From: an uncultured Gammaproteobacteria bacterium
GTDB lineage: Bacteria > Patescibacteriota > Microgenomatia > Levybacterales > UBA12049
Reading direction: 5' to 3'
DNA: 53,184 bases
Assembly (NCBI GenBank): GCA_964549385.1
Contig: CAZJVI010000001.1
Location: 1-53,184, forward strand
In this document: piece by piece, positions 4,752-24,224 of the stretch
Layout: every line of letters begins with the position of its first letter
How positions within the stretch are numbered: the stretch's first letter is position 1
Notes under the pieces: generated by a model
Database searches by the model: none
The model's input: the letters and a program-made list of their open reading frames with translations, nothing else
What the model was told of the DNA's origin: nothing
Translations under genes and position numbers: made by a program

Positions 4752-5405
4752 TTATTTTTTTGCGATAATTAAACACGTTGAGATAAAACCTTCAAAAGAT
4801 ACATAAAAGGGTATACGGTAGTTAAGATGTTTATTCACTCGCCATATATAAGGGAAAAAAGACATAGGATATAATGTTACTTTTTTGAAGCCATTTAACA
4901 AAAATAAATGTCTCCAATTTTCAGGATGTAACACAGATAAATGCGTTTTATCAGCTACAATATTTTTATAATATGGGTATGGTGATGTCCCACAAAAAAT
5001 ACCATCTTTTTTTAGTAAGTTATAAATTTTGTCAATACTGGCTAAAGGATTTTCTAAATGTTCTAGCACTTCAAAAGCAAAAATTTTATTATATTTTTCC
5101 TCTGTAGAAAATTCTTCTAAAAAAATGGAATGAAATATTTTTTTTCTAAAAAATGCATTTGCAAATTTCATCGCTTGGTTGTCGGGTTCTAATCCAATAT
5201 AATCAATATCTTTCCCTTTTAAAAAAGCGTAAAATCCTCCAACGCCAGACCCGATTTCTAAAACTTTTTCATCTTTTTCAATAGCAATCTGTTTGTTAAT
5301 AAAATTCCATTGAGCTGTAAACCATTTTTGATAATTCTCAATATCTTTTACACTGAAAGTACTTTTATAATGATTTTTGAAATATTCGTTATATTGGTTT
5401 TTCAT
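4752..5405 (-). CDS. Class I SAM-dependent methyltransferase
   Basis: Motif I VLEIGSGVGGF, then FAFEVLEHLENP and LLKKDGIF (Methyltransf_11/23-like). Confidence 0.8.
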   Translation of the reverse strand: MKNQYNEYFKNHYKSTFSVKDIENYQKWFTAQWNFINKQIAIEKDEKVLEIGSGVGGFYAFLKGKDIDYIGLEPDNQAMKFANAFFRKKIFHSIFLEEFSTEEKYNKIFAFEVLEHLENPLASIDKIYNLLKKDGIFCGTSPYPYYKNIVADKTHLSVLHPENWRHLFLLNGFKKVTLYPMSFFPYIWRVNKHLNYRIPFYVSFEGFISTCLIIAKK

Positions 5406-5436
5406 AATTTATTAAATCAATAACCGTTTAATAGAC

Positions 5437-5652
5437 TTAGATTAGAAATAAAATAATTGATGCAAACAAAAATCCAGCAGCATACATAATTAACCGCTCT
5501 GCCGTAAAAAATATCCAAAAAGCAAATAAAGGTATTGAAAGAATCAAACATAGTAATCCAGCATATACTAAAAATTTTGGATTCTTTTTTATAAATAAAA
5601 AAACAATTATTAATAAAAAAATAATATCTTGTGGTTTTAATAAATGAAACAT
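5437..5652 (-). CDS. Small hydrophobic membrane protein (71 aa, ~3 TM), function unknown
   Basis: The ATG lies 2 nt after the stop of the upstream GT-C gene. The sequence is almost entirely hydrophobic (IIFLLIIVFLFI, LVYAGLLCLILSIPLFAFWIFF, AAGFLFASIILFLI). Confidence 0.5.
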   Translation of the reverse strand: MFHLLKPQDIIFLLIIVFLFIKKNPKFLVYAGLLCLILSIPLFAFWIFFTAERLIMYAAGFLFASIILFLI

Positions 5653-5654
5653 AA

Positions 5655-7709
5655 TTATAAAAAAATAATTAAACTAATCACGATAACCGCTGTAATAATA
5701 CTTATTATCATTCCTCTATTAACCCACGTTTGCGGTTCATAAGAAAGTGTCATTGAGTAATTGCCATTTTTTGGTAATATAAAACTATTATAACGACCAT
5801 CAAACTTTTGTGAAGAAAGAATAGTATTGCCTAACTGGGCTTTCCAGAAAGAATCATAGTTTTCTGAGAATACCACTCGTTGATTTTTCTTTCCATTTTT
5901 GATTGTTACCATATATTTTGTTTGTTCAATTTCGTTATCGTGAATAACAATATGAGTATCAGGACTCCAGAAATGAGACTTAGTATGTAATACTTCAAAA
6001 ACTTTATTCTTACCATAATTCTTAACTTGTTTTAACCAACCTATTTTTTCTAAAGAAGTAACATACGATGTATATTGTTTTTTGTCAAATTTTCTATCAG
6101 TAAGATAAATTGTTCCATCGGTGTCATCAGGAACAACAATATATTTGATAGAAGAATCCTCAAGAACTCTTTTTACAGATGGTTGTGAAATAGCTTTTAT
6201 TATACTTTTTGGTGAATAAACTTGGAGAAAATCATTTGCCGAAAGTGCAGGATGATTAAGTGAATACATACCATATTTTTGTCGGACAGGTAGCCACAGA
6301 GTTCTGAAATAAGAATTTTGAGAGGAAAGAAAAGAATTAAGTTTTTTATAATCTGAGGATACTGGCTGAGAAATAAATGTTCCGGTAAGTTGTCCCAGAA
6401 CTGCCTGATGAATTGTACATAACCAAAAAAGAATAAAAACAATTCCAACAATATATGCTCCATAATTCTTTAATACTTGATACTTAATACTTGATACTCT
6501 TTTCGATATTTGGAACAAACTATAAGGGATAAGGATACTGTAAGAAACAATAGCTAACATATAAAACTTTGTCGGATCACGGAACATGACAAAACCAGGG
6601 ATATGTCCAAACATCCAAAGATATATTCCACCAAAAGGATCATTGGCACCTTTTGACAGAAAAGCACCAAGTAAGGCAAGCAGCGCAAAATATATAATAT
6701 ATAAACTTTCTTTCTTTTCTTTTTTAATAAACAAAAGTGACATAAAAGCAATAATCGGCAATACAATAAATTCTGGACGCATGAAAGATACTTCACCAAA
6801 AATATTTTGCGGCCAATATGGATGAAGAAGCGATATACTATCTTCGAATTTTGCAAAACTGAAATACTGAACTGACTTGACAGAAGTAATAATTGCGCCA
6901 AACTGCGCAACAGGATTTTGATGTAATACAATAATTGGCACTATCCAAAAGGCGTGAATGAAACCCGTTATACAAAGTGGAATAACAAAAGCATAAATAA
7001 TGAATGGCGTAAGAAAACGCGCATTTTTTCTTGAAATCGTTACCCCTATTTTTAACAGTGCATATATTCCGATTGCAAAAAGAGTTACGTACGCGAAGCG
7101 TAAATCGAAAATTGCCTGAAGCGCAAAAAGTAATCCACAAAGTAGAACTTTTTTGACAATTTCCTTACTCGTAAGTAATCCTTTTAAACGATTCAGATCC
7201 AAACTATCAATTAATGTTATAAAATTCACAAGCACAATCGGCATCATTACATATGCCATCCCTACACCGGCTATTTGTCCGCCGCCTAACATCATTAATG
7301 TATAGGTATTAAAAAGAAAAATAAATGTAGAAAGAAAACCAAATTTTTTAATTGATACAATTTTTATAAGGAAAAAATGCGAAACAAAAGCTAAGATAAA
7401 AAAAGGTATCCACCAAAAAATTCTTTCAATAATAACACCATTCCAATTAACTATACTTGCAGCAACACCCATCAAAAAATTATATGGAGCATAATTTAGT
7501 AACGCAGTAGCGTTTTGTCCAAAATCATAGGTACTAACCCACGAAGAAAATGAATTATGAGAAATGAACTGTAAATAAGTAGTTGTTAATAATGTATAGT
7601 CCCCACCAGAAATCAAGTGATTAGAAAAAATAAAAGGAAATATAATTAGAATTAAAATTATAACTAATAAAAAAGTTAGAAGGTATGTTTTATTTGTTAA
7701 CGGATTCAT
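5655..7709 (-). CDS. GT-C-type polytopic glycosyltransferase, AftD/DUF3367-like (paralogue P1)
   Basis: 684 aa with more than 10 TM helices. ISGGDYTLL follows TM1, the loop motif is HIPGFVMFRDPTKFYMLA, then FRTLWLPV and IKYIVVPD. A C-terminal beta-rich domain (FWKAQLGNTIL...ILPKNGNYSMTLSYEP) ends in a terminal TM anchor. Confidence 0.6.
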   Translation of the reverse strand: MNPLTNKTYLLTFLLVIILILIIFPFIFSNHLISGGDYTLLTTTYLQFISHNSFSSWVSTYDFGQNATALLNYAPYNFLMGVAASIVNWNGVIIERIFWWIPFFILAFVSHFFLIKIVSIKKFGFLSTFIFLFNTYTLMMLGGGQIAGVGMAYVMMPIVLVNFITLIDSLDLNRLKGLLTSKEIVKKVLLCGLLFALQAIFDLRFAYVTLFAIGIYALLKIGVTISRKNARFLTPFIIYAFVIPLCITGFIHAFWIVPIIVLHQNPVAQFGAIITSVKSVQYFSFAKFEDSISLLHPYWPQNIFGEVSFMRPEFIVLPIIAFMSLLFIKKEKKESLYIIYFALLALLGAFLSKGANDPFGGIYLWMFGHIPGFVMFRDPTKFYMLAIVSYSILIPYSLFQISKRVSSIKYQVLKNYGAYIVGIVFILFWLCTIHQAVLGQLTGTFISQPVSSDYKKLNSFLSSQNSYFRTLWLPVRQKYGMYSLNHPALSANDFLQVYSPKSIIKAISQPSVKRVLEDSSIKYIVVPDDTDGTIYLTDRKFDKKQYTSYVTSLEKIGWLKQVKNYGKNKVFEVLHTKSHFWSPDTHIVIHDNEIEQTKYMVTIKNGKKNQRVVFSENYDSFWKAQLGNTILSSQKFDGRYNSFILPKNGNYSMTLSYEPQTWVNRGMIISIITAVIVISLIIFL

Positions 7710-7714
7710 TGTAA

Positions 7715-8035
7715 TTATTTGTTTTTATCAAACTTTAATTCGAACAGCATTTTCAGGACTCCAAATAAGAAGAAAAAATATGCCCAATTTGCAGCGGAAT
7801 TATAAGGAAGATATTGCGAATTAATACAATATAATATAACTGCAAAAATAAGAAGAATAATTGCAGAAATAAAAAATATATTTTGCAACTGTTTCACTTT
7901 TGCGGAGAAAAGATATAGCGCCAATCCTATAATTACCGCAAGGATTTCAATTTTTATTCCCGACAATAAAATATCAATAAAGACAACGCCATAAATAAAA
8001 ATAAGAATTACTATTTCAGTTTTTTTTAGATTCAT
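7715..8035 (-). CDS. Small 4-TM membrane protein (106 aa), candidate lipid-linked sugar flippase (GtrA/ArnE-size)
   Basis: Four hydrophobic spans. The start overlaps the 3' end of the upstream GT-C gene by 20 nt. I recognise no catalytic motif. Confidence 0.45.
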   Translation of the reverse strand: MNLKKTEIVILIFIYGVVFIDILLSGIKIEILAVIIGLALYLFSAKVKQLQNIFFISAIILLIFAVILYCINSQYLPYNSAANWAYFFFLFGVLKMLFELKFDKNK

Positions 8036-11000
8036 GAGATAACTTGTCCCTCCATTTATACTTTACTAAAACTATTAAAGCATAAACAAAAATTGCTGCA
8101 TATGCTAAAACAGCCATTGTGGCTAAAATGCCACCAATTCCGTTTTGGACAAACTTTAAACGCAAAGTGACAGATACCGAGCCGTCGGAATTTTTGATAT
8201 AAGCGGACTTAGGAAGATTAGAAATAATGACATCTTTATTAATACTCCATCCGTTTGCATAATTAAATATCTTTGTATGATTACTCTTAGGCAAGGGAAT
8301 ATTGTCTTGTGTGTATAATTTCCAATTCGGAAAATAAAGATTTAAAAAAACGAGTTCTTCATTTTGCTGCAAACGCTTTATATTGACAATATATTCTTGG
8401 TTTGAAATTTTTCTATATTGTATATCCTGCTGACTGCTATCCGGAACATTAAAGGCATTTTGGGTGAGATATATCGTATCATTTAAAAATCGAGGATTTA
8501 TTTCATAAAGCGTATAACGTGACCCAAAATTTTTAATTTTTTTACCCAGAAAATATTTCTTATATTTACTATCCTGAAGATTACAAATATTAATAGTATC
8601 AACACATATATAGCTTTGTTTAATATCTTTGCTAACCGTATTATTAACAATAATATACCGGACATTATATTTTTGATAAATTCCTCCTAATTGTTCGTAA
8701 TCTCCTTCACGCATGTCCTTTTTAATTTCACTCCCTATCCTTCCAAAGCTCATAAGACCTGAATAATCGTTTTTCCCTGATAGTAACAAAAGCGGACTCA
8801 CTCCGCTATAAAAATGATTTTTTTGATTCTCGTCTTGTATTTGAGATATATTACCTGTATTAAGTGGAATCCAAAGATACCGTGAAGGATTTGATTGATT
8901 CCTTACATAACTAACCAAATTGATATAATCATGGTTGAAACCTGTTGTTGTTGTATATGTATTATGGGTTGTCCACACCGGCAAAGCATAAAATGCTCCG
9001 GTTAAAAAAGGAAACGCGTTTAGAAGAATAACAAAGAAAAAAAAGATTGTAACTACTCGCTTATATAGTATGTTTATTTTACTGGTAAGAAAGTAATTAA
9101 GACAAACAAGTAATAATAACGAGAAACTAAAGGCCATTGCATACCCAAACTTATCATACATATTCCGGAACATTACAAATCCTGGGAGATAGTTAGTTAA
9201 AAATACGAACAACTTTATGCCGGCATTTCCAATATTTACCGTAAATAAATAAAGTATTAGAAGAAATCCCAATGAGCATGTGATATATGCTTTTCTAAAC
9301 TGATTGTTTTTTATCTTTACCCCTGTCCAAAGAATAAAAATAATAAAAACACTGTTAAAAATAACAAGTTTCAAATACCATGATGTAAATATTTGTAAAT
9401 AGGGCCATCTGAAATTATTTTGTATGTCATAGTGATACAAATTTACTAATGGGAAAAATATTTTATTAATTTGCGATGTACCAGTAATACCTTGAGCATT
9501 TTGATTGCGGTATTGAGCAGATACAATCGAGTTATTCGTAGAAATATTACTATTCGATAGGGATGAACTCGATGCAGCAATAATCCAATATCCATTTAAA
9601 AGTAAAAGTAAAATTCCAAAAAGAATGTTCAAAATAATAAATTTTATTTTCTCTTTCCAAAATAGAAAAACAAGTACAGGTATAAAAGCTATAAAAGCCG
9701 CTGCAAACCATGGTAATGAAATTAGTACAAAAGAAAATACTGACCATATAATTGCACATAAACAAAGCAGATAGTATTTCTTTTCTTTTATTCCTTTAAT
9801 ATAGAGATACATACTTAACGGAAACATGCTTATAAGAAACTGCGCAATTAATAAAGAATTGAAAAGTGTATAAAAGTTGAAAATAGAAAATACATAAAAT
9901 AAACTTGTTAAACTCCGTGCAATGAAATATTCAAACCGCTTCCCAGGAAAGATGTAATCTATAAGTACATAAAAGAATACGAGGCCTCCGATGATATTCA
10001 ATACAAATAATGTCGCTTGAAGATTTAACGGCGCAAAAATTGCTTTTAAAACAATACTGAAAATTGCGAATTGAGCCATACTTGTTGTCGGTAATGAATT
10101 AATTACACTGCTGACTCCCCCATTCAATCCATTGCTCGCAACAAAATTTTGGAAATAAATTACAGGATAAAGAAAGTAAACTCGTGAATCATCACCTCCG
10201 AGAATATATGTTTTGTCTATTGCAGCAATAAGAAATGCTAAAAAAGCTATGACCCAAAAAATTTTATATACCCATTTTTTTATATATACAGTTTCTTTAC
10301 TCTTTAAAAACCTCATAAAAAAATTTAAAAAGACCTGCAGTATACCAGCAAAAAGAAAAACCCAAACAAGACTTATTACTATCTCTGCAAATGTGTAGAA
10401 ACCAGTAAAGAGGATGATCAAAAAAAGCACAAAAAAGAAAATAGGCACAACAAATAATAATTGCTCACCTATGCTCAAAAGTAATACACATAGCAAACAA
10501 AATCCTACCAGCCAACCGAGAGCGCCCGAAAAATTACTTTGGACCAAACTTGAATAAAAAAAGAAACAGAATAAAAAGAGAGGTATGATATTTTTTAATA
10601 TTTTTTCCTGTCCTATCTCCGATATAGAAATCTTTAAAACTTTTCTAAATTTCGCTATGATTTTTTGTGGATTAATAAAAAATATCCCAAGTATTAACGA
10701 AAAAAATATCGTTGCCCATGAAATTGATTCAAAATATTTGTTGACAAGAAAAGTGACAAACATTTTTTTATTATGCAAAAGAACACTTCTCGGATATGAG
10801 TATTTTGTCGTAATATTTTTAGAGCTAAGAAAAACGCTTGCCGACTTCGTAGATTTTGAGGGTTCAATAACTACTTGATATTGTTTATTTTTAGAATTGG
10901 CAATAATAGGAAAGCCAACGGGATAGAGTGGCAATAACTGGATACCAGTAGTAGTATATCTTCCCTGATAATACCAATTTGCTGCACCTTTTTCTTTAAG

Positions 11001-11270
11001 TTTAATTTGTACATTTCCATTATGACCCACCGTGAGTGGCAAACTTATACTTCCCAAATAATTGTCACTTACTGCAAAATTAAAAGAATAATCATGACGG
11101 TTTGTTGAAGTAATAACAGCAGTAGTATTTGTGGCAAGGGTTGTAAAACCATTATGTTTTATATCAATAAGTACTAAAGACGTTTGTATAAATATAAAAG
11201 CTGCAGCAATTATCAGAAGAAATTTTAACACAGCGTATATAGTAACTTTTACCGGTGGCCGATTTATCAT
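8016..11270 (-). CDS. GT-C-type polytopic glycosyltransferase, AftD/DUF3367-like (paralogue P2) with ~330-aa N-terminal extra module
   Basis: 1084 aa. The core starts near residue 358 (ILGGDDSRVYFLYP). Further motifs are YLPGFVMFRNMYDKFGYAMAF, SRYLWIPLN, VRYIIVNN, FGSRYTLYEINPRF and FNYANGWSINKD, with a terminal TM anchor. Confidence 0.6.
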   Translation of the reverse strand: MINRPPVKVTIYAVLKFLLIIAAAFIFIQTSLVLIDIKHNGFTTLATNTTAVITSTNRHDYSFNFAVSDNYLGSISLPLTVGHNGNVQIKLKEKGAANWYYQGRYTTTGIQLLPLYPVGFPIIANSKNKQYQVVIEPSKSTKSASVFLSSKNITTKYSYPRSVLLHNKKMFVTFLVNKYFESISWATIFFSLILGIFFINPQKIIAKFRKVLKISISEIGQEKILKNIIPLFLFCFFFYSSLVQSNFSGALGWLVGFCLLCVLLLSIGEQLLFVVPIFFFVLFLIILFTGFYTFAEIVISLVWVFLFAGILQVFLNFFMRFLKSKETVYIKKWVYKIFWVIAFLAFLIAAIDKTYILGGDDSRVYFLYPVIYFQNFVASNGLNGGVSSVINSLPTTSMAQFAIFSIVLKAIFAPLNLQATLFVLNIIGGLVFFYVLIDYIFPGKRFEYFIARSLTSLFYVFSIFNFYTLFNSLLIAQFLISMFPLSMYLYIKGIKEKKYYLLCLCAIIWSVFSFVLISLPWFAAAFIAFIPVLVFLFWKEKIKFIILNILFGILLLLLNGYWIIAASSSSLSNSNISTNNSIVSAQYRNQNAQGITGTSQINKIFFPLVNLYHYDIQNNFRWPYLQIFTSWYLKLVIFNSVFIIFILWTGVKIKNNQFRKAYITCSLGFLLILYLFTVNIGNAGIKLFVFLTNYLPGFVMFRNMYDKFGYAMAFSFSLLLLVCLNYFLTSKINILYKRVVTIFFFFVILLNAFPFLTGAFYALPVWTTHNTYTTTTGFNHDYINLVSYVRNQSNPSRYLWIPLNTGNISQIQDENQKNHFYSGVSPLLLLSGKNDYSGLMSFGRIGSEIKKDMREGDYEQLGGIYQKYNVRYIIVNNTVSKDIKQSYICVDTINICNLQDSKYKKYFLGKKIKNFGSRYTLYEINPRFLNDTIYLTQNAFNVPDSSQQDIQYRKISNQEYIVNIKRLQQNEELVFLNLYFPNWKLYTQDNIPLPKSNHTKIFNYANGWSINKDVIISNLPKSAYIKNSDGSVSVTLRLKFVQNGIGGILATMAVLAYAAIFVYALIVLVKYKWRDKLSHESKKN

Positions 11271-11296: not shown

Positions 11297-13525
11297 TCAT
11301 ATTACCGGCTTATTAGGTTTTATAAAAAAATAGAGAATATAACAACAAGAGATCAAAAAAGTAATGCCGCTTAAAGCATAAGCAAAAAATGAATATCTTT
11401 GAATAGCAAAATATAATCGCAGTGTAATATTAATACTACCGTCTGGATTTGCGCTGTAATAGCCCTCACCAGATTGTGTTTTGATTTTTTCAGGATCTAT
11501 ATTCCAACCATTTGCGTATCCAAATACTACGTTATCATTCGCCGCATACTCTTGTTCTGAGCCGTTTTGAGACGTAAGACTAAGTTTCCAATCCTGATAA
11601 TAGGGATCAAGAAATATAAGTTTTTCGGTCTTTTTTAAATGAGTAATTGAAATGTCATATGAGTAACTAGTAAGTCTTTTATAACTAAGATTACTAAACT
11701 CTTTCGGAAACGTTGAAAAACTTTCTGTTAAATACAACTTATTATTTTCAAATCTTGGATTAATAGAATAAAGAGAATATCTGCTGCCAAAATCTTTTAT
11801 TTTTCTCCCAAGAATAATTTTCTGAAATGAGTTTCCCTGATCATTTAGAAGCTTCAGACTATCTCCACCATAATAAAATGATTGCAAATATGGAGGTGGT
11901 AATTGATGATCTACGATAATATATTTAGTATTTCTTTGCTGCAATATTTTTCCAACTTGCATGTATTTACCCTGATCAAGTAAAGTAAAAAGTCTATCCC
12001 CTAAGAAAAGATCTGTTGAGGTGATAAAACTAAATCCTCCTGCATAATCTGACATATTTGCTAGTTCTCTAAGAGGTGACAACCCTGAATAAAAGTGTCC
12101 AGGATACTTACCATCTTCTACACTAGTGTATGTTGGTGCGTTAAGAGGAATCCATGCCACCCTCGACGCGTTGTCAAGACTAGGGAGATATGAGACCATC
12201 TTCATAAAATCAGAATTAAATTCTCCAGAGAATGTAGTAAGTGGATTTATTTGTTTTTTCAAAAAAAGAGCATTTGATACTGATGTGAATAAAAGTATTA
12301 TGGCAAGTAAAATTATCAAACCAGTTGAGATCCATTTTAGTCGAATAAATCTAAAAATAATTTGCAAACTGATGGACAAGGCAAATGCATACATAAAAGC
12401 AAGAGGAAGAGCAAATTTATCAAACATATTTCGAAACATAGTAAAAAACGGAATATGATTACCAAAAAAAAGAAAAACATTTGTACCGTAAAGACCAATA
12501 TTTGGAGAAAAGAAAAACCAAGAAAGAAGGAAAGAAAATAATACGACAAAATATACAATTGTTTTTTCTTCCTTATTCCGCAATGTGATTAAACCAGCTG
12601 CAATAATACACGCAAAAAAAATGCTTTGGGGTAATAATATAAGAGAAATATCATTAGCAAAATTTGAATCCATTTGTATAAAAGGAATATTTAGCGGTGT
12701 AAATAACCCTGCAACTCCAGTAATAATACGGATATTATCTTTGATGAAATTTGTCGAAGAATAATACTGAAATATACTTTGTAATCCCACTGGATGAATG
12801 TATGGATAAATAAAATGAAAAATCCAGTAAAAATTAAGAAGAAAAAATAAAGCAATGAAAACACAAGAGTAGATGAAAAAGATTTTTTTCTGAAGAAGAA
12901 ATTCATACAGAAAAAGCGGTAATAAAACGAGTATGATTCCTGCCCACCACGGGAGAGTATTGATCGTACTACTAAATAGTGAGAAAACGATTACGCTTAA
13001 CAGAACGAAAACAACTTTTTTTTGTTTTACACCTTTAAAAAAAAGATAAAGAGTCCATGGCAGAACCGATATCAAATAAATCGACAACAACTGATTTGTA
13101 TACATCGTTTTTACGAGATAAATCGATGTCACATAAAATATACTACCAATTATATTGGCACTAAATTCTTTTGTATTTTTAGGCCGTATCCATAAATTTA
13201 TCAGTGTATAAAATCCTAAAAAGCCAAGAGATAAATTAAGACCGTACAGTAACAGTTGAGTACTAACATAAGGTATAAATTTAAAAATCCAAAAAATGAA
13301 AAACATGGGAGCAATATACGCGACAGATGTATAACCTGTCATAGCTCCAGCAAGTGTGTTATCAGAAATTATGTTGAACGCATAATTCTTAAGAAATTGA
13401 AATGGAAAAACGTAATAAAGCCTTGTATCATCCCCTCCAACAAGATAGGTATTGCCCCAAATGGCAAATGGGATAAAAAGTAATAATAAACATATAATAA
13501 AAAGAATTAGTGATTTATTTTTCAT
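11297..13525 (-). CDS. GT-C-type polytopic glycosyltransferase, AftD/DUF3367-like (paralogue P3)
   Basis: 742 aa with LVGGDDTRLYYVFP, HIPFFTMFRNMFDKFALPLAF, SRVAWIPLN, TKYIIVDH, FGSRYSLYSINPRF and FGYANGWNIDPE, plus a terminal TM anchor. Confidence 0.6.
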   Translation of the reverse strand: MKNKSLILFIICLLLLFIPFAIWGNTYLVGGDDTRLYYVFPFQFLKNYAFNIISDNTLAGAMTGYTSVAYIAPMFFIFWIFKFIPYVSTQLLLYGLNLSLGFLGFYTLINLWIRPKNTKEFSANIIGSIFYVTSIYLVKTMYTNQLLSIYLISVLPWTLYLFFKGVKQKKVVFVLLSVIVFSLFSSTINTLPWWAGIILVLLPLFLYEFLLQKKIFFIYSCVFIALFFLLNFYWIFHFIYPYIHPVGLQSIFQYYSSTNFIKDNIRIITGVAGLFTPLNIPFIQMDSNFANDISLILLPQSIFFACIIAAGLITLRNKEEKTIVYFVVLFSFLLSWFFFSPNIGLYGTNVFLFFGNHIPFFTMFRNMFDKFALPLAFMYAFALSISLQIIFRFIRLKWISTGLIILLAIILLFTSVSNALFLKKQINPLTTFSGEFNSDFMKMVSYLPSLDNASRVAWIPLNAPTYTSVEDGKYPGHFYSGLSPLRELANMSDYAGGFSFITSTDLFLGDRLFTLLDQGKYMQVGKILQQRNTKYIIVDHQLPPPYLQSFYYGGDSLKLLNDQGNSFQKIILGRKIKDFGSRYSLYSINPRFENNKLYLTESFSTFPKEFSNLSYKRLTSYSYDISITHLKKTEKLIFLDPYYQDWKLSLTSQNGSEQEYAANDNVVFGYANGWNIDPEKIKTQSGEGYYSANPDGSINITLRLYFAIQRYSFFAYALSGITFLISCCYILYFFIKPNKPVI

Positions 13526-16214: not shown

Positions 16215-16218
16215 AAAA

Positions 16219-17052
16219 TTATTTATTTTTCTTATTTTTGGAAGCAAATAGATATCCCATACCTCCAAATCCGAATTCGCATGTTTTTAAAAATAACATT
16301 CCTATACCAAGTACCGGATCTTTGAATAATTTTTTTGGCTGAGAAAAGAATAATGCATACCTTTTTGTTATACTCATCTGCTCTTTTATATGTAAATTAT
16401 CCTGCAAATTTATATATTGCGAAATAAATTGTGCATAGTAAAATTTTTTTTCAATTGTTTTCAGTAAAGATAAGTTCCCTTCATTATGATACGCCATACT
16501 CTTAATTCTCCCAAGTTTGCCGTATTTTTCCAGCTGCTGTGAAAGATACCAATCTTCTCCGCTGATTAGACTTTCATTGTAACCTCCTACTTTCAAAAAA
16601 GCTTTCCTTTCAAAAAATCTGGTTGCTTCCATATATTCTACTCCTATATAAAAACTTCTCTCCAATTTTTTACACGCTGCCCAAAAACCTTCTCCAATTG
16701 ATTCTTCCGGTATAATAAGTGATTTTATTTTAGGATTTTTTTCCACTTCTGAGACACATTCACTCACTACTGTTGATGAAAGTTCCATATCCGAATCCAA
16801 AAAAAAGAGATATTCCCCTTTTGCTTTTTTTGCACCAAAATTGCGTTGAGCACTTCGTTCGGGTCCTTTGGTAAAAACTTCTTTTGTATATTTCTTTGCT
16901 ATTGTTACCGTTTTATCAGTGGAATGGTTGTCAATAATAATAAGTTGTATCTTTTTATATGTCTGTTTTTTTATACTTTCCAGACAATTCTTTAAAAACT
17001 TTTGTGAATTTTTGGTTGGAATAATAATTGAAACTAAGGGTGATTTCCTCAT
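16219..17052 (-). CDS. Glycosyltransferase family 2 (paralogue of 32034..32864)
   Basis: VSIIIPTKNSQKFLKNCLESIKKQTYKKIQLIIIDNHSTDKT, FTKGPERSAQRNFGAKKAKGEYLFFLDSDMEL. Confidence 0.85.
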   Translation of the reverse strand: MRKSPLVSIIIPTKNSQKFLKNCLESIKKQTYKKIQLIIIDNHSTDKTVTIAKKYTKEVFTKGPERSAQRNFGAKKAKGEYLFFLDSDMELSSTVVSECVSEVEKNPKIKSLIIPEESIGEGFWAACKKLERSFYIGVEYMEATRFFERKAFLKVGGYNESLISGEDWYLSQQLEKYGKLGRIKSMAYHNEGNLSLLKTIEKKFYYAQFISQYINLQDNLHIKEQMSITKRYALFFSQPKKLFKDPVLGIGMLFLKTCEFGFGGMGYLFASKNKKNK

Positions 17053-18260
17053 GACGCAATAGCATTATACACTTCTTTAGCGCGTTTATCCCATGAATAC
17101 TTTTTATGAATAATTTCTTCGGCTTTATTGCCGATATCATTCGACAATTTTTTATTTTTAAGTAATTTTATAATATTTTCAGCAAATTGATCTATATCCC
17201 CAATTTCAGCTTTTACCATACCAACTGGATAATACGATTCATATGCTTTTAAATTAAAACCGACACATGGCAAACCAAATGCCATAATTTCAGCTGCGGC
17301 CATACCACCACTATCATAAAAAGCCGGATGAACTACAACTTTACTTTGACTAAATAGTTTATATTTTTCTTCTCCATCAAACATAAAACCTGTCAACATA
17401 ATATTTTTCTCCAAACCAAATTCAACAATTTTTTGTTTAACTACTGGCATTAATGGTCCATCCCCGAGCATAATCAATTGTGCATTGCTCATCTTCTGCG
17501 TAACTTTTTTCCAAATCTCAATCATTTCTACAACACCTTTCTGAGGATGAAATCTTCCCTGAAAAATCGCATCATATTTTTTCGCAATTCGAGCAAACTT
17601 TTTTTTATAATAATCAATTTCATCAAGATTCACTGCTCCAATTAAAACAATAATCTTATTTTTTTTATTGTGTCTAGAAAAACGTTTTCGCTCATCTTCG
17701 TTATTGACAATGATATAGTCTGTAAATCGTCCTAGTAATGGTTTGATTGGCAATTGCGCAAGATAATATAACAAGGCTTTAAAACGGTATGTTTCTTTTC
17801 TATCTCCTTCTGCAAATCCGGCCAGAGGATTTGGTGCGGTTTGATACCATGTACCTACCCAGCAAACAGTAGGATAACGCAATTTTAGAAACAAACCTGG
17901 TAAAGAATCCATCCAGAATTCCGATGCAGAATAAATAATCGTTTGCTCTGGGTTATCAAGTGTCAATGATAACCCCTTATAGATGCCAAGAATAATTCGT
18001 GCAATATAGTGACCAAGGAAACTAAATGCATACCATTGATTCATTTTTGTTACATGAATATGCTTATCTGACAGTTCCTGTTTTTTTGTCATAGCCAAAC
18101 CTTCTTCAGTTACATAGATATGTACATCGTTAGTTTTATTCCAGCGTTTGGCTAGTTCAATAAAAATCCGGTCACTCCCTGAAATTCCACTTCCAACAGC
18201 AGCATATGCGAAGAATAAAAAATGCGGTTTGTCTTTTGATGAAGATTTTTTCTTTATCAT
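17049..18260 (-). CDS. Glycosyltransferase, GT-B fold (GT4/GT1-like)
   Basis: 403 aa. LIMLGDGP and VVVHPAFYDSGGMAAAEIMAFGLPCVGFNL match the GT-B donor-binding region. Confidence 0.75.
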   Translation of the reverse strand: MIKKKSSSKDKPHFLFFAYAAVGSGISGSDRIFIELAKRWNKTNDVHIYVTEEGLAMTKKQELSDKHIHVTKMNQWYAFSFLGHYIARIILGIYKGLSLTLDNPEQTIIYSASEFWMDSLPGLFLKLRYPTVCWVGTWYQTAPNPLAGFAEGDRKETYRFKALLYYLAQLPIKPLLGRFTDYIIVNNEDERKRFSRHNKKNKIIVLIGAVNLDEIDYYKKKFARIAKKYDAIFQGRFHPQKGVVEMIEIWKKVTQKMSNAQLIMLGDGPLMPVVKQKIVEFGLEKNIMLTGFMFDGEEKYKLFSQSKVVVHPAFYDSGGMAAAEIMAFGLPCVGFNLKAYESYYPVGMVKAEIGDIDQFAENIIKLLKNKKLSNDIGNKAEEIIHKKYSWDKRAKEVYNAIAS

Positions 18261-18303: not shown

Positions 18304-19137
18304 TTATTTGACAGCTCTTACAAAAACGGAGACGCCTATTTCTTTTGACTGGTACATGTCATTCAGTTTATCTATGGCATTGACCAAACCAAATGCTACA
18401 TCAAGAACCATCGGCCTCTTTGGATTTTTTTTGTACTTACTAACAGATGCCGCAGTTGTTGCGGACAATCTTCCCCCGTATAACGCACGCGCTACAAGAT
18501 TGATAATGTAATGATTAAAAGGCAGCGACCAACAGGTAACCGCTCCGGCATCTTCCACTTGAAATTTCGCTTTTTTCATCACAGCTACGATATCACTTCT
18601 TTTGTAGAGTCTGATGTGCTGATTCCAAATGCCGGCCCAAAATCCTTTTTGGATATGTTTGCCTGTTGTCCTTTCAAGAATCCAATTTACCGGATCCCAC
18701 AAAAATGGATAGTTAGCATCTGGTACAGTAAGACACAAAGTGCCGCCTGGTTTGAGAACGCGGTAAACTTCTTTAAGTCCTTTTACATCATTGGGCAAAT
18801 GTTCTGCAACTTCAGACATAACAATTTTATCGAAGGTATTATCTTTGAATGGCAATTTTTTCATAAGGTCTGCTTGAACAAGTGGAATTGTTTTACGCAA
18901 ATTCTTCCGTGCGTTTTTCAATCCATTTGGATCAAAATCTGTTCCTGTAAGATGAAGTTTTAATCCGAGATTATCAAGAAGATAAAGATAATATCCATCA
19001 CCACAACCGACATCGAGAATTTTTTCTTTTTCCTGAGGATCAAGTCCCATGATAATTTTCTTCGCGCGCCTCTTCAACGCCATATCTCCAGTACTCACAA
19101 GGAGTTGATCCAATATTCTCTCAGCCTTTTTTTTCAT
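18304..19137 (-). CDS. Class I SAM-dependent methyltransferase
   Basis: Motif I ILDVGCGDGYY, then FDKIVMSEVAEHLPND and VLKPGGTLCLTVP. Confidence 0.85.
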   Translation of the reverse strand: MKKKAERILDQLLVSTGDMALKRRAKKIIMGLDPQEKEKILDVGCGDGYYLYLLDNLGLKLHLTGTDFDPNGLKNARKNLRKTIPLVQADLMKKLPFKDNTFDKIVMSEVAEHLPNDVKGLKEVYRVLKPGGTLCLTVPDANYPFLWDPVNWILERTTGKHIQKGFWAGIWNQHIRLYKRSDIVAVMKKAKFQVEDAGAVTCWSLPFNHYIINLVARALYGGRLSATTAASVSKYKKNPKRPMVLDVAFGLVNAIDKLNDMYQSKEIGVSVFVRAVK

Positions 19138-19161
19138 TAGTTTCTATTTATAGTGGATTAA

Positions 19162-19236: not shown

Positions 19237-20424
19237 TTACAGATATGAGCTTACTGCTTTTAGATTGGTAGGATCAGCTGGATTCCCACCGCCGTAGAGA
19301 TGCGCCAATCCAGTAGCACCTGTCATTTCATCCAAATAATACGTTGTTTTACTTGTTAAATTAATAAACTCGCTCTCAGAGGCAGATCCATAATCAGAAA
19401 CGCTGTTGTTGCCAGTTGAGATTTCTTTTGTCATATCAGCGTCACTCTGACTGCTGCTAGATGTAGATAACGTAACAAAAGCCCAGTATCCCGCTGCTGT
19501 GCCGCTATCCCATCCGAAATCTGTTGAATATGACAGTTCCCAAATTCCGATAGGAACAGTTATCGAATCTCCACCTATGTTATACCATGTGTTTGCTGTA
19601 GGACTGCTTTCATAGGTAAATGGTGAATCAGAGACTTCAACTGACCACTTTGCTGGATCCAAAGGAAAACCCAGAGGTGCTTTTTCTGTTGAAAAATATA
19701 TGTTGCTGATTGTGGAATTTGCAAGAGTATAATCAGTCCCCCCATAAAGTGTTATGGTTGTATTAGGAGAAGAAAAGGATACTCCGGTAATAAGAAAGTA
19801 TTTTATTGTAGATGACTGCGTCAATTTAATCCTCATGCCAGGAGTATAAATACCAGTAAGATCACCTGAAGTTGTCGCTGTAAATGTCGGTGAATCTGCT
19901 GATGCATATGTCCAAGTGTTGCCATCTTGAACCCAGCCGTTGACAACTGATGTATAAGCGGACATAGGAGAGTTAGTAGTGGCATAAGGCAGAGGATAGT
20001 TTAAGACTTGCGAGACATCACCGCTATTGTCATGAAGAGTAACTGATGTAACTCCATAATCTAAGCTAGTCTGAGTACCTGGGGTCGTCTGATCTACGCA
20101 TGTGCCCATTGTACAGCTACTGAAATTGCCCTGCCATAGGTTTATGCCGGGACCTCCGTTTTGCAGTATCGCTACATTACCATTATCGAAAGTTCCTGTA
20201 TAATCAAACTTTAATATGCCGGTTGTTGGATCGAACGTGACATTTGATACGGTAAAGCTGCCAGAAGCATGAATACGATGATAAGAAGGTAAAATCCAGA
20301 GAGAAAGAATGATAACAGAAAATAATACAAATACTGTTTTTAAAATAAAAGGTTTTACGAAAAACTTATTGAAAGTTTCTACTTCCAATTTATGAAGGAA
20401 AAATGAATTGATTTTGTTTTTCAT
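19237..20424 (-). CDS. Secreted or surface protein, Ser/Thr/Gly/Asn-rich, function unknown
   Basis: N-terminal signal anchor FVLFSVIILSLWILPS with an AXA-like site (RIHA/SG). The mature part is rich in S/T (TLSTSSSSQSD, TATTSGDLTG, SFSSPNTTITL). The gene is visibly more G+C-rich than its neighbours. Confidence 0.7.
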   Translation of the reverse strand: MKNKINSFFLHKLEVETFNKFFVKPFILKTVFVLFSVIILSLWILPSYHRIHASGSFTVSNVTFDPTTGILKFDYTGTFDNGNVAILQNGGPGINLWQGNFSSCTMGTCVDQTTPGTQTSLDYGVTSVTLHDNSGDVSQVLNYPLPYATTNSPMSAYTSVVNGWVQDGNTWTYASADSPTFTATTSGDLTGIYTPGMRIKLTQSSTIKYFLITGVSFSSPNTTITLYGGTDYTLANSTISNIYFSTEKAPLGFPLDPAKWSVEVSDSPFTYESSPTANTWYNIGGDSITVPIGIWELSYSTDFGWDSGTAAGYWAFVTLSTSSSSQSDADMTKEISTGNNSVSDYGSASESEFINLTSKTTYYLDEMTGATGLAHLYGGGNPADPTNLKAVSSYL

Positions 20425-20442
20425 TTAACGAGCTCTAGCATT

Positions 20443-20471
20443 ACTATTCCACAGTATCTATATACTGTCAA
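20443..20471 (-). promoter_or_regulatory. Promoter candidate for 19237..20424 (-35 TTGACA, 17-nt spacer, -10 AATAGT) overlapped by a 7-4-7 inverted repeat
   Basis: Minus-strand TTGACA is at 20466-20471 and AATAGT at 20443-20448. ACAGTAT (20451-20457), spacer ctat, and ATACTGT (20462-20468) form a perfect inverted repeat across the spacer and -35. Confidence 0.35.
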
Positions 20472-20649
20472 TAGTACATTTTGCATCATTTTTACTCTAT
20501 AAAAAATCTAGAAAATCATAAAATCTGTAGATAGCAGCATACTATAATATATAAATTTAAAAATGCAAAAGTAAACCTATGGTAAAACCTTATAATTAAT
20601 ATCAATCGTATTACTCCTTTTTATAACCAACAATCCATTTGCATATCGA

Positions 20650-21390
20650 ATGTCTACAATAAAATATGATAAAATGAAACTGATGAAAAATTTTGGTACA
20701 TATATTAGGAATTTAGGGAAACAAGTAGAAGATGAAGTAGAATTAACGGTCGAAAATTTTCTTCCTAAAAATGGTAACCTCACCTATCTTGATTGTGGAT
20801 CATATGATGGATATAGAACAATGCAAAGAGCAAATGCAATTGGCACAAAAAAAGTTTTGGGGTTGGATGTATTAAAAGATGTTTCCAAAAAAGCTACAAA
20901 AAAAGGAGTTAAAGTAATATTTGGAGACTTAAATGAGAAATGGCCCATACCTAGCAATAGTGTTGACGTTATTACATCAACTGAGACGATTGAACATTTA
21001 ATTAATGTTGATCTATTTCTTGAAGAAGCTCATAGAGTCCTCAAAAAAAATGGACTTTTTATTCTCTCAACTGACAATCTCGCCGCTTATCATAATATTT
21101 TCGCACTATTTAGAGGACTTCAGCCCTATACTGGTCCTTTTTTGTCTAGAAAATACCCAATCGGACATAGACCAAATGCAATCTTTTATGAAACTCTGAA
21201 GGATATGTATCCTCATTTAAATGTAATGACAACTAAATCCTTGGTACAATTATTGGAATATAATAAATTTAAGATCAAAGCGGTAACAGGTGCAGGTTTT
21301 TACCCATTTCCAATACCGATTGCAAGATTGCTAGTGAAGATCGACAAATACCATGCTTCTCATTGTATTGTTGTAGGACAAAAAATTTAA
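20650..21390 (+). CDS. Class I SAM-dependent methyltransferase
   Basis: YLDCGSYDGY (degenerate motif I), VDVITSTETIEHLINV and VLKKNGLFILST. Confidence 0.75.
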   Translation: MSTIKYDKMKLMKNFGTYIRNLGKQVEDEVELTVENFLPKNGNLTYLDCGSYDGYRTMQRANAIGTKKVLGLDVLKDVSKKATKKGVKVIFGDLNEKWPIPSNSVDVITSTETIEHLINVDLFLEEAHRVLKKNGLFILSTDNLAAYHNIFALFRGLQPYTGPFLSRKYPIGHRPNAIFYETLKDMYPHLNVMTTKSLVQLLEYNKFKIKAVTGAGFYPFPIPIARLLVKIDKYHASHCIVVGQKI

Positions 21391-21393
21391 TTT

Positions 21394-23562
21394 TTAATAA
21401 TTACCAATATTTAAAGATATATCAACTGTATAACTTCCTTTTTTACTAACCAACCAACCGTTTGCATAGCCGTTGAGAAGATAATGATCATTCAAAACCT
21501 GATCCCCTATTTTTGCCGACCATAAGTCATTAAAATTATTTGCAAGAATCAACATAAATGGATTTTTGCTATTGGTTATTTTTATTTGATAACGTGTGTC
21601 TGATAATTTCTCAACAGTATACTTTGGTTTTTCTAAATGGATGTCAGGATAATTTAGTGTATTTTCAGAAGGGATAATTACGGCATCATTAGCAGGATCA
21701 AAACGAGCACTCGAAATAAGAGAAAATGTTTTATCTAAATTTGAAGCATCAAATAGCTTATCAGCAATATAAACTCTCCCGGGAACTAAATTATTATTTA
21801 ATTTATAAACTTCTAACTCCCCGTTATTATATACATGCTTTACTCCTGACCAATTTTTTATATACGTCCGAGTATCGTCTACTTTTTCCTGATAGTAAGA
21901 AGTTATAATCTCATCTTTATGCAAAATAATATATTGCACATCCATAATTGCCAACAGATTTGAAAAATATTTACTTTCTCGAAAATAAACTGGATCACCT
22001 AGTTTTAAATAAAAATTATCCATAAAAGGGATAGAAACTACTCGAGATATTGAAGAATTATCAAATAAATATTCTGTTGGTTCTTCTCCATTATAATTCC
22101 ACTCATAAGTAACTTCTGTTCCTCTTAAAAAAGGTAATTGGAAAAGTCTCGTATCAGTGCTGGCATGAGAATCAACATAGCCATTAACGTTTTGATAATA
22201 ATCCGGTACCACTACGTGTTCGCTTGGAGAAAATAATCGGCCACTCCACATGGGCTTTAATAAATAACCGCAAAAAATAAGAAGGACTAAAATAATGAAA
22301 GAATATTTAAATTTTTTAAGCTTTTCTGCAATATATGTTACTCCGATTGAGAAAACCACAGCGTATGCTAGAACAAAAACAGAGCCAAATTTTTCATATG
22401 GATTTCTGAATATTTGTAATATAGGAATATATTTAAAAATAAAAGAATAAAATTCAACTCCAAAAGGAGGATTGGTCCCTTTACAGATAAACCATCCCAA
22501 AATAAGTAAAAGTAAAAAGAATAAATGTCCTTGAGCAACTTCTATTTTAATTTTCTTTTCTCTTAGTTTTTTTATGCTTACTATGACACCAATCAAAACA
22601 AGCAATAATGCCGCAATACTCATAGCATACACATGAGGAACAGAATAAAATTCAACAAATGGTCTTCCACTTTGCTGTCCGAATAAAAATAACTGTCTTA
22701 ATAACCACAAAGCGCTATTGGGAAAATACTTACTAACTTCAAAAAGCGATTCATAATTTCCATTGAAATCAATATTTGTACTTGCGGTGATATTTTTTGT
22801 CTGCCAGATAGGAAATAACCACCACATATTTGTTAAAATCCATAAAACAAAAGAAATAAATGCAGACCGTATAAGTGTAAATTTATTGTTGTTTTTGAAT
22901 ATAACGATAAAAAAATAAACACCAGCACAAAACCACAGTGTGATGAGTGGAGAAATAATTACAAACATCTCAGAAAAGATCAAAGTAGTGAATAAAAAGA
23001 ATAATAGATATTTTATTTTATTTGTTTTTAAATATAATACCCAAATCAATAAAAAAAGCGGCAAATATGACCACAAAAGTATCAAAGGATAAACAAAACG
23101 TGTAATAACTTGTGATAACGTATAAAGATTAAAAAGATAAAATAAAGCAGCAACAAAACCGATATTTCCATTTTTATCCTGCAAAATTTCCTTAACTAAT
23201 TTGGGAACAGATAGAATTGGAGTAATAATAAGTCCAAAAAAAACGACAAACTGAACTTGCCAAGATACAAGACCGATTTTCTGTAACAATACAAGAAAAA
23301 CAAATAGTGGAACCCTAGGAATATTTAAAACACCGCTCAAACCAAGACCTGTATCATAAAAATAAGAAGAATAATTTACAAGAGTTCTTGTAGTATCATA
23401 AAAAGGAATGCCTTCTTCTGCAGAAGCAAACATAGTATGATCTTTAAACCAAATTGCTACTACGATCAAACTAATGGCTATTAAGATATTTTTATATAGA
23501 AAATAATTATTTGTTATTAATGATCGATAATAGTTCCTAAAAAAATTTCTGTAGAGTTGCAT
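21394..23562 (-). CDS. GT-C-type polytopic glycosyltransferase, AftD/DUF3367-like (paralogue P4)
   Basis: 722 aa with YIPILQIFRNPYEKFGSVFVLAY, TRLFQLPF, VQYIILHK, LWSAKIGDQVL and NGYANGWLVSKKG. It has no terminal TM anchor. Confidence 0.55.
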   Translation of the reverse strand: MQLYRNFFRNYYRSLITNNYFLYKNILIAISLIVVAIWFKDHTMFASAEEGIPFYDTTRTLVNYSSYFYDTGLGLSGVLNIPRVPLFVFLVLLQKIGLVSWQVQFVVFFGLIITPILSVPKLVKEILQDKNGNIGFVAALFYLFNLYTLSQVITRFVYPLILLWSYLPLFLLIWVLYLKTNKIKYLLFFLFTTLIFSEMFVIISPLITLWFCAGVYFFIVIFKNNNKFTLIRSAFISFVLWILTNMWWLFPIWQTKNITASTNIDFNGNYESLFEVSKYFPNSALWLLRQLFLFGQQSGRPFVEFYSVPHVYAMSIAALLLVLIGVIVSIKKLREKKIKIEVAQGHLFFLLLLILGWFICKGTNPPFGVEFYSFIFKYIPILQIFRNPYEKFGSVFVLAYAVVFSIGVTYIAEKLKKFKYSFIILVLLIFCGYLLKPMWSGRLFSPSEHVVVPDYYQNVNGYVDSHASTDTRLFQLPFLRGTEVTYEWNYNGEEPTEYLFDNSSISRVVSIPFMDNFYLKLGDPVYFRESKYFSNLLAIMDVQYIILHKDEIITSYYQEKVDDTRTYIKNWSGVKHVYNNGELEVYKLNNNLVPGRVYIADKLFDASNLDKTFSLISSARFDPANDAVIIPSENTLNYPDIHLEKPKYTVEKLSDTRYQIKITNSKNPFMLILANNFNDLWSAKIGDQVLNDHYLLNGYANGWLVSKKGSYTVDISLNIGNY

Positions 23563-23609
23563 CTTGTTTATACCTTTGTATTATAGTATAAATTGATTAG
23601 TAAAATCTT

Positions 23610-24224
23610 ATGGCTAATTTCTACGACTTTTATTGGACAGAAAAGAAATCAGACAAGCTTAATGACTTTGATTATAAATGGCCGGTTCTCTCAAAAATTA
23701 TCCCACAGAATCAAAAAATAAAGATACTAGATTACGGATGCGGAACAGGTAAGATATTTAAAGAACTTATGCAGATGAATCCCCAAAGTACAATTTCAGG
23801 GACAGATATTTCCGAATTTGCGCTTAAAAAAATTGAAAAAAGATTTCCTAAAAATCGTTTTTACCTCGTTTCAGACGGGACAAAAATACCATTAAAGAAT
23901 TCAACCTTTGACTTCATCGCAGCGTTGGATGTAATAGAACATATTGTTCATACAGATCTAATTCTAGATGAATTTTATAGAATTCTTGCACCAAAGGGTA
24001 AATTACTTATTAGTACACCATATCATGGCGTAATTAAAAACTTGGTTTTGTCAGCAGTCGGATTTGAGAAAGTCTTTAACCCCTTTGGGCCACATATTCG
24101 CTTTTTTACTGAGGCTTCTCTTACAGAAGGCTTGGAAAGACACAAATTTAAAATTCTAAAAAAAGGTCATTATGGTAGGTTCTCCCCGTTATGGAGAGGC
24201 ATGTATTTCCTAGTACAGAAATAA
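23610..24224 (+). CDS. Class I SAM-dependent methyltransferase
   Basis: Motif I ILDYGCGTGK, then FDFIAALDVIEHIVH and ILAPKGKLLISTP. Confidence 0.8.
   Translation: MANFYDFYWTEKKSDKLNDFDYKWPVLSKIIPQNQKIKILDYGCGTGKIFKELMQMNPQSTISGTDISEFALKKIEKRFPKNRFYLVSDGTKIPLKNSTFDFIAALDVIEHIVHTDLILDEFYRILAPKGKLLISTPYHGVIKNLVLSAVGFEKVFNPFGPHIRFFTEASLTEGLERHKFKILKKGHYGRFSPLWRGMYFLVQK

Follow-up and report, generated by a model that had tools for sequence, protein, structure and literature searches.

AftD-like glycosyltransferases and their methyltransferase neighbours in a probable surface-glycan locus of Patescibacteria

Introduction

What kind of surface do bacteria with genomes of ~1 Mb build, and with which enzymes? 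Patescibacteria have such genomes, and their cell-surface chemistry, which mediates an episymbiotic life, is to our knowledge essentially uncharacterised. Contig CAZJVI010000001.1 (assembly GCA_964549385.1), from an uncultured member of the Levybacterales, puts the question in a concrete form. We analysed the whole contig of 53,184 bp (~31% GC), referred to here as the window. According to Pfam scans its content is nearly all glycan genes, so that an entire 53-kb contig is given to glycans despite the small genome. An initial annotation of the window had singled out four large membrane proteins, P1 to P4, as glycosyltransferases of the GT-C superfamily. It had proposed that they form a repeated module with S-adenosylmethionine (SAM) methyltransferases and tiny membrane proteins, and that this module builds methylated glycans outside the cell.

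Here we ask what these four proteins are, whether their association with methyltransferases extends to other genomes and what the locus may make. We find that P1-P4 belong to the AftD branch of the GT-C glycosyltransferases and not to the YfhO branch, and that the pairing of methyltransferase genes with AftD-like genes is conserved in related genomes but not universal. The region forms the core of a surface-glycan locus that is conserved in Patescibacteria and probably builds a decorated glycan.

Four ancient paralogues of the AftD branch

The four open reading frames (ORFs) stand on the minus strand where the initial annotation had placed them, and every motif that it quoted was located. P1 (684 aa, 5655-7709) has GGDY at residue 35 in its first outer loop and FRDPTKF in a later loop. 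P3 (742 aa, 11297-13525) has GGDD (residue 30) and FRNMFDKF at the corresponding places. P2 (1084 aa, 8016-11270) is a composite, in which a P3-like GT-C domain (residues ~346-1084, 8016-10235) with GGDD at 358, FRNMYDKF at 701 and YANGW at 1004 is fused to an N-terminal domain that we call X. P4 (722 aa, 21394-23562) has AEEG (residue 48) instead of the GGD motif, FRNPYEKF in the later loop and GEEP at 492. YANGW is present in P2, P3 and P4, and a C-terminal membrane anchor in P1-P3 only.

Judged by their sequences, the four are true but ancient paralogues, with a similarity far above chance. P2 and P3 had been described as nearly identical in places, which was overstated: they are 33% identical over ~700 aa (BLASTP E 1e-91) and have short conserved runs in common. 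The remaining pairs are 19-24% identical, with BLASTP E values of 5e-13 (P1/P4), 3e-9 (P1/P2), 5e-6 (P2/P4), 2e-4 (P3/P4) and 1e-5 to 3e-4 (P1/P3).

The link to AftD comes from profile searches, a predicted fold and Foldseek comparisons. Homologues number 58 for P3, 46 for P4 and, counted as clusters at 90% identity, more than 471 for P1. Nearly all are unnamed Patescibacteria proteins, and the P1 family is annotated throughout these bacteria as 'hypothetical'. The AftD family PF11847 (GT-C_AftD) is precomputed on most P4 homologues; P0091, which is 32% identical to P4, scores 52.8 bits, above the threshold. Both P0091 and P0099 (~1010 aa) are fusions of a GT2 enzyme with an AftD-like GT-C enzyme. 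Against PDB sequences, the P4-family profile finds mycobacterial AftD (6W98, 6WBX; E 3.4e-4) in three colinear stretches; it is the only one to reach AftD, the P3- and P1-family profiles giving nothing useful in the same search. At the sequence level P1-P3 are tied to the AftD family by profile-profile alignment only. The P3-family profile (A1) aligns with the P4-family profile (A2) over its whole length (100% probability, E 8.5e-50), and the P1-family profile (A7) does so over 641 columns (100% probability, E 1.9e-49).

The AlphaFold2 (AF2) model of P3 has a predicted local distance difference test (pLDDT) score of 90 and a predicted template modelling (pTM) score of 0.88. The model shows ~12 helices bundled in the membrane, an alpha/beta domain outside it, a beta-sandwich and a single helix at the C-terminus. 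Foldseek matches it best to AftD (6w98, E 7.9e-8), then to STT3 (1e-6) and AftA (5e-4), all with a probability of 1.00. The model of full-length P2 is confident in the P3-like domain, and the GT-C fold of P1, P2 and P4 follows from BLASTP and hhalign links to the modelled P3.

Conserved residues agree with this placement. Acidic residues immediately following membrane helix 1 (D32/D33 in P3, D37 in P1, E49/E50 in P4) are at least 90% conserved and aligned between the families. The Arg...Lys pair of the FR(N/D)xxxKF loop is common to all families and includes the conserved R365 and K370 of P3, and the (Y)ANGW motif of the beta-sandwich is likewise conserved and aligned. D37, R377 and K381 are invariant across 42 members of the P1 family. 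In AftD, K39, D41, E251, K361 and D474 are essential (AftD structure paper). Its first-loop acid and loop lysine have putative counterparts at comparable positions in the P1-P4 families.

The initial annotation had guessed AftD/DUF3367 in preference to YfhO, and at the superfamily level the guess was right. P1-P4 have no match to YfhO (PF09586); the true YfhO of the window (51037-53103, 81.6 bits) is related to the P1 family in a short C-terminal stretch at most. Matches of P1-P4 to DUF6044, MmpA and GroES in Pfam and NCBIfam were sub-threshold or spurious and were set aside.

Mycobacterial AftD carries out alpha-(1->3) arabinofuranosyl transfer from decaprenyl-phospho-arabinose. The Patescibacteria proteins resemble it in several ways: AftD (PF11847, PDB 6W98) is the best structural match, with the same GT-C fold and the colinear match to the P4-family profile; the first membrane helix is closely followed by an acidic residue, and a later loop has a conserved lysine; and beyond the membrane bundle come an alpha/beta domain on the outside and a beta-sandwich with a (V/Y)(A)NGW motif, after which the chain returns to the membrane. 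The differences are equally clear. P1, P3 and P4 have 684-742 aa compared with ~1400 aa in AftD. The P3 model has one beta-sandwich where AftD has three carbohydrate-binding modules, and one C-terminal helix (none in P4) takes the place of the helical bundle with which AftD binds an acyl carrier protein. The D474/E475 pair is kept in P4 only. The phylum is different too, and four paralogues occur together with methyltransferase, X/s106 and s71 partners. Because they are half the size and lack both the three carbohydrate-binding modules and the carrier-protein-binding bundle, P1-P4 are not AftD orthologues. General Pfam scans of the window, which were not a dedicated search, picked out no decaprenyl-phospho-arabinose pathway genes. 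P1-P4 would transfer a sugar from a polyprenyl-phosphate carrier outside the membrane, for which an ArnC/GtrB-like GT2 in the operon and the GT2-AftD-like fusions provide the context.

Methyltransferases beside the AftD-like genes

Six methyltransferases are encoded around these enzymes. On the minus strand lie MT1 (class I, 217 aa, cytoplasmic; 4752-5405; Pfam Methyltransf_23, 7e-15), MT2 (class I, 304 aa; 13515-14429; Pfam, 1.4e-23) and an FkbM-family enzyme (266 aa; 14404-15204; Pfam Methyltransf_21, 4.6e-16). MT2 has an N-terminal zinc ribbon, the four cysteines of which are invariant. Two class-I enzymes recognised by Pfam flank P4 from the plus strand: MT3 (20650-21390) is convergent with P4 and ends 3 bp from its stop, and MT4 (23610-24224) is divergent from it across a 47-bp gap. 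All five had been named before and all score above Pfam thresholds; a sixth (class I, 277 aa; 18304-19137, minus strand; Pfam Methyltransf_11, 2.4e-24) had been missed. The six are not orthologous to one another. None contains a membrane or hydrophobic segment, and they are therefore taken to be soluble and cytoplasmic.

The idea that every copy of the GT-C gene has a methyltransferase neighbour held in part. The P1-P2-P3 block is bracketed by methyltransferases and P4 has one on both sides, but P2 itself touches none. Of the 40 other genes of at least 130 aa, 6 encode methyltransferases, which gives a probability of 1.6e-4 that chance places one at each of the four flanks of the two GT-C blocks. 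The stop of MT2 overlaps the start of P3 by 11 bp, as read directly from the sequence, an arrangement in which MT2 is predicted to be translationally coupled to P3.

A scan of one genome per species gave 50 related loci, in which we made our own gene calls and classified the products by iterated hidden Markov model searches. All 50 come from metagenome-assembled genomes (MAGs) of Patescibacteria, namely Levyi-, Ames-, Woese-, Gottesman-, Moranii- and Berkelbacteria and Saccharimonadia. One gene order recurs among them: a class-I or FkbM methyltransferase, a P2/P3-type GT-C gene (~760 aa), X (~330 aa), often a further methyltransferase, a P1-type GT-C gene (~670 aa) and s71. It is followed by two GT4 genes, an acyltransferase, a GT2 and a large membrane protein. 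Upstream, related loci have P4-type genes accompanied by methyltransferases of their own. Loci L007, L010, L012 and many others have their gene order in common with named Patescibacteria MAGs.

Adjacency was counted with the window and two duplicate loci excluded. Methyltransferases occupy 68 of the 160 flanks of AftD-like blocks, where 29.0 ± 4.4 were expected from 5000 within-locus shuffles (maximum 45); these statistics are indicative and overstate independence, because the loci share ancestry. Between 57% and 61% of methyltransferases touch an AftD-like gene, compared with 14-19% of GT2, GT4 and short-chain dehydrogenase/reductase (SDR) genes. The methyltransferase counts are if anything too low, because the gene calls miss some genes, such as one for a 245-aa methyltransferase in L001.

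The slot beside the GT-C gene is filled in different ways. Methyltransferases form many clusters, and different, non-orthologous class-I and FkbM enzymes occupy the same position. In the MT1 cluster, 8 of 9 members are adjacent to an AftD-like gene, and in the MT2 cluster 9 of 10 are adjacent to a P3-type gene; one FkbM cluster lies directly upstream of a P2/P3-type enzyme in 9/9. The place between X and P1 is taken by another class-I cluster, and the cluster of the sixth methyltransferase often comes after P4-type genes. Three P4 homologues that were checked (43%, 29% and 31% identity) all have a methyltransferase neighbour. The adjacency that the initial annotation had proposed to look for is thus conserved and enriched in related genomes, and it recurs in a different gene context. 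The latter was seen among seven loci from a reverse search with MT2, which is taken up below. Four of the seven (35-57% GC) have the order Wzx, GT4, methyltransferase, B12-binding radical-SAM enzyme, small methyltransferase and AftD-like GT-C. On two contigs, of 35% and 57% GC, a ~590-aa AftD-like GT-C gene directly follows two class-I methyltransferases and the B12-binding radical-SAM enzyme (L066:2500-7269 and L070:3896-8742). The latter enzyme may be a third methyltransferase.

Methylation may not be the only decoration. Carbamoyltransferase genes (Carbam_trans_N/C) lie close to AftD-like genes in two loci (L057:3463-5325 and L054:10186-11943), which suggests that the methyltransferase slot accepts other sugar-decorating enzymes too. 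Unclassified ORFs of 616-622 aa in similar slots of L014, L015, L019, L041, L047 and L048 may be the same carbamoyltransferase. One ORF (L013:7362-9302) joins an FkbM methyltransferase to a GT2.

The paralogues and their neighbours are therefore real, and what did not stand is the description of the locus as three or four repeats of one module. The locus is one ancient composite with non-equivalent parts, and the pairing is part-specific: P4 goes with methyltransferases, a class-I or FkbM methyltransferase precedes P3, X/s106 follows P2/P3-type enzymes and s71 follows P1.

Small membrane proteins as conserved partners

The ORFs of 71 and 106 aa that had been noticed after P1 and P2 were confirmed and are conserved partner genes in relatives. 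The first, s71 (5437-5652, minus strand), is a small conserved membrane protein directly downstream of P1. In an alignment of 18 sequences (A4; 42% mean identity), eight residues are invariant (Q, D, F, P, FFT and Y). Among 1.84 billion proteins it has 72 representatives, nearly all of 70-78 aa, and it lies no more than three genes downstream of P1-type enzymes in 17/36 cases. A start of s71 at an internal TTG was considered and rejected: the codons there read TTA, and the ATG at 5652 stands. P0261 (721 aa) is a fusion with s71 at its N-terminal end, followed by a ~650-aa part with many membrane segments, which has no match in Pfam or in the fetched loci.

The second protein, s106 (106 aa; 7715-8035, minus strand), has four membrane helices and is encoded directly downstream of P2, the end of which it overlaps by 20 bp. 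It is homologous to the membrane part of X (hhalign of A5 and A3: 97.7% probability, E 1.5e-12) and follows P2-type enzymes in related loci. The X domain itself (P2 residues 1-345, 10236-11270, minus strand) starts with a membrane helix and continues with a beta-rich domain on the outside, followed by ~5 further membrane helices; in the full-length P2 AF2 model its pLDDT is below 50. Most relatives have X as a stand-alone protein of ~330 aa, and 32 such homologues match P2 residues ~10-326. In the lineage of the window it has become fused to an extra P3-like enzyme, giving P2. Overall, a gene of the X/s106 family follows a P2/P3-type enzyme in 39 of 53 cases. Neither s71 nor s106 matches a Pfam family, GtrA and SMR included, X has no Pfam match, and the s71 and X/s106 families are both without a relative in the PDB.

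In one relative, X and a class-I methyltransferase domain recognised by Pfam (residues 345-464) are encoded together in one ORF (L046:12262-13878). Counting helices, the C-terminus of X would be cytoplasmic, which would suit a SAM enzyme.

Donor synthesis and comparison with known systems

Just downstream of MT1, the window encodes a GT2 enzyme of the ArnC/GtrB/DPMS type (318 aa; 3732-4688, minus strand) with two C-terminal membrane helices. Against PDB sequences, residues 2-290 of its 318 match ArnC (3.9e-40) and GtrB (sll0501; 5e-32). This enzyme is likely a polyprenyl-phosphate sugar synthase supplying donors.

A GtrB/ArnC-like GT2, a GT-C enzyme and small multi-helix proteins in one operon recall the three-component systems GtrA/GtrB/Gtr-type GT-C, CsbB/GtcA/YfhO of Firmicutes and ArnC/ArnE-F/ArnT. 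By analogy, this suggests that the window operon follows a common logic, in which a polyprenyl-phosphate sugar would be made, flipped and transferred outside. Unlike those systems, the GT-C enzymes here are AftD-like, not YfhO, Gtr or ArnT. In addition, s71, s106 and X match neither GtrA nor any other Pfam family, even though they are small membrane proteins in an analogous place, and methyltransferases are added as partners.

Soluble SAM methyltransferases encoded beside membrane finishing enzymes are known from the agl clusters of archaeal N-glycosylation (AglP) and from WbdD/WsaE, which cap O-antigen and S-layer glycans with methyl groups; there they modify a lipid-linked glycan at the cytoplasmic face. 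The loci described here are similar in that soluble SAM methyltransferases are encoded beside GT-C enzymes, and the FkbM-GT2 fusion of L013 resembles WsaE. They differ in that P1-P4 have no oligosaccharyltransferase motif, Pfam scans of the window find no ABC transporter or kinase domain, and each locus has several non-orthologous methyltransferases beside GT-C genes.

Proposed mechanism and alternatives

We lean towards a reading in which polyprenyl-phosphate glycans are built inside the cell, methylated, flipped and transferred outside by the AftD-like paralogues, with X/s106 and s71 as subunits. Sugars or short glycans would be assembled on polyprenyl phosphate at the inner membrane face. 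Class-I and FkbM enzymes would O-methylate them there; in some relatives, carbamoylation might take the place of methylation. After flipping, each AftD-like enzyme would add its own sugar to a growing wall or surface glycan, and X/s106 and s71 could be dedicated membrane subunits, acting for example in donor hand-over or flipping.

Several results weigh against this reading. In a direct Pfam scan none of P1-P4 reaches a threshold: P4 scores 22.2 bits on PF11847 (cut-off 26), P3 has a weak DUF6044 match and P1 and P2 have nothing. The AftD 'RDEP' that contains D474/E475 aligns with GEEP in P4 only, and P1-P3 have SP/HP there. MT3 and MT4 are on the strand opposite to P4. Since the methyltransferases are cytoplasmic and the GT-C enzymes work outside, the two cannot act at the same place and any coupling would be indirect. 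PDB searches with the methyltransferases return generic class-I enzymes only, and nothing for FkbM; the proposed O-methylated glycan product is accordingly putative. An ArnC-like GT2 as a constant companion of P1-type enzymes was tried and rejected, as it is no more than four genes away in only 9/37 cases. One locus, L056, has the GT-C, X and s71 genes without a methyltransferase. Finally, the reverse search started from 80 metagenome loci picked by similarity to MT2 and found an AftD-like gene within 4 kb in 7 of them; the MT2-type family is broad and lives mostly in other gene contexts.

The last two points also favour an alternative in which methyltransferase adjacency is simply the inherited order of a dense glycan locus. 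The methyltransferases would then serve only the cytoplasmic GT2 and GT4 enzymes, with no special tie to the AftD-like ones, and would act on a lipid-linked repeat unit, for instance by capping its end in the manner of WbdD/WsaE. Their solubility, the FkbM-GT2 fusion and the descent of all test loci from one ancestral locus are in keeping with this. It fits less well with the frequency of contact with AftD-like genes, which for methyltransferases is three to four times that of the GT2, GT4 and SDR genes in the same loci, with the swapping of non-orthologous class-I and FkbM enzymes in one slot, and with the return of the adjacency in a different context at 57% GC. The X-methyltransferase fusion also links a methyltransferase to the membrane module, and MT2 appears to be coupled to P3. 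We therefore regard inherited order as a serious possibility, albeit a doubtful one. Going beyond our preferred reading in the opposite direction, the locus might encode a multi-subunit machine specific to Patescibacteria, composed of a GT-C enzyme, a dedicated small subunit (X/s106 for P2/P3-type enzymes, s71 for the P1 type) and a cytoplasmic methyltransferase that this subunit would dock, on the example of the X-methyltransferase fusion, with methylation of a lipid-linked sugar coupled to flipping and transfer. The methylated wall glycan that such a machine would make would be a hallmark of the lineage. We consider this idea tentative and rather improbable.

The AftD-like proteins might instead transfer whole lipid-linked oligosaccharides, as polymerases or ligases or as oligosaccharyltransferases of the STT3/PglB/AglB kind. 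STT3 subunits are the second-best fold matches, archaeal agl clusters join an oligosaccharyltransferase with a methyltransferase, and the Wzx flippase and Wzy_C protein of the window make it probable that undecaprenyl-pyrophosphate-linked units are produced. En-bloc transfer is nevertheless distinctly unlikely. The WWDYG motif of oligosaccharyltransferases, searched for as WWD[YWF]G, is absent from P1-P4, and the closest relatives by sequence and fold, AftD and AftA, are single-sugar enzymes. The operon holds an ArnC/GtrB-like synthase of monophosphate sugars, GT2-AftD-like fusions exist, and four paralogues would not be expected for en-bloc transfer. Highly unlikely, in our view, is a purely structural role, in which some paralogues, P1 especially, would be non-catalytic scaffolds or regulators of envelope assembly modelled on the mycobacterial AftD-TmaT complex. 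P1 does have a single acidic residue in its first loop (GGDY) and no GEEP pair, and the small partner proteins suggest complexes. However, D37, R377 and K381 are invariant throughout the 42 P1-family members, a pattern that fits an active site. A 2026 preprint bears on both sides of this question: it reports AftD in a 1:1 complex with another membrane enzyme, and also that the complex partner AftD must itself be catalytically active.

Novelty and significance

Literature searches on Patescibacteria together with GT-C, DUF3367 and candidate phyla radiation (CPR) glycosyltransferases with methyltransferases returned nothing relevant. Four elements appear to be new: the compact, multi-paralogue AftD-like enzyme, the conserved occurrence of methyltransferases beside it, and the two protein families X/s106 and s71. 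The enzyme class as such is familiar, and the functional claims made here are drawn from genomic data. Nonetheless, three large families of 'hypothetical proteins' now have a place in the AftD branch of GT-C, two conserved families of small membrane proteins have been defined and a link between GT-C enzymes and methyltransferases has proved to be conserved. For biochemistry, these results offer catalytic acids, candidate complexes and expected O-methyl sugars as targets, and they bring the chemistry of the cell surface in a major uncultured lineage within reach of direct experiments. The small size of the enzymes may, in addition, make it easier to tell apart the catalytic core and the accessory domains of AftD, which is essential in mycobacteria.

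Other genes of the window

The window encodes at least eight GT-C enzymes, including P1-P4, three of the PMT_2 type and one YfhO. It also holds many GT2 and GT4 enzymes, sugar epimerases and dehydratases, a Wzx-like flippase, an acyltransferase_3 protein and the Wzy_C protein. The three PMT_2-type genes and the YfhO gene (44490-53103) alternate with small GT2 genes (46010-46870 and 50312-51028) and, unlike the AftD-like genes on the same contig, have no methyltransferase neighbour.

From 20424 down to 1420, 17 genes follow one another on the same strand with intergenic gaps of at most 99 bp. Within this run, two GT2 genes and a GT4 gene for cytoplasmic glycosyltransferases (15201-18260, minus strand; Pfam) separate the P4 and P3 sub-blocks, and the order P4-MT-GT4-GT2-GT2-MT-P3 is also present in L001. 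At the other end lies a conserved tail (2-3692, minus strand; Pfam), which consists of a 177-aa gene for the N-terminal half of a GT4, a full GT4, a hexapeptide acyltransferase and the Wzy_C membrane protein, and whose order is kept after P1/s71 in L056 and L057. The Wzy_C gene (2-1282, minus strand), for a protein like O-antigen ligases and polymerases, is truncated where the contig ends; in relatives, the protein in this position has ~1050 aa.

The 177-aa gene (3159-3692) contains the N-terminal half of a GT4 only and stands directly upstream of the full GT4. Because its length is kept in distant relatives (L056:11903-12436 and L057:11740-12273), a conserved subunit, either split from a glycosyltransferase or accessory to one, appears likelier than a pseudogene.

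Two further proteins have no assigned family. One, of 600 aa with ~13 membrane segments (32929-34731, plus strand), was considered as a relative of the P3 family, which hhalign ruled out; the other, of 395 aa (19237-20424, minus strand), has a single N-terminal anchor. Overall, a promoter and terminator scan of the window gave counts equal to those in shuffled sequence. The sole good intergenic promoter-like match (TTGACA/17 nt/AATAGT with TG, 20471-20443) falls in the 225-bp gap at 20425-20649, upstream of the long minus-strand run.

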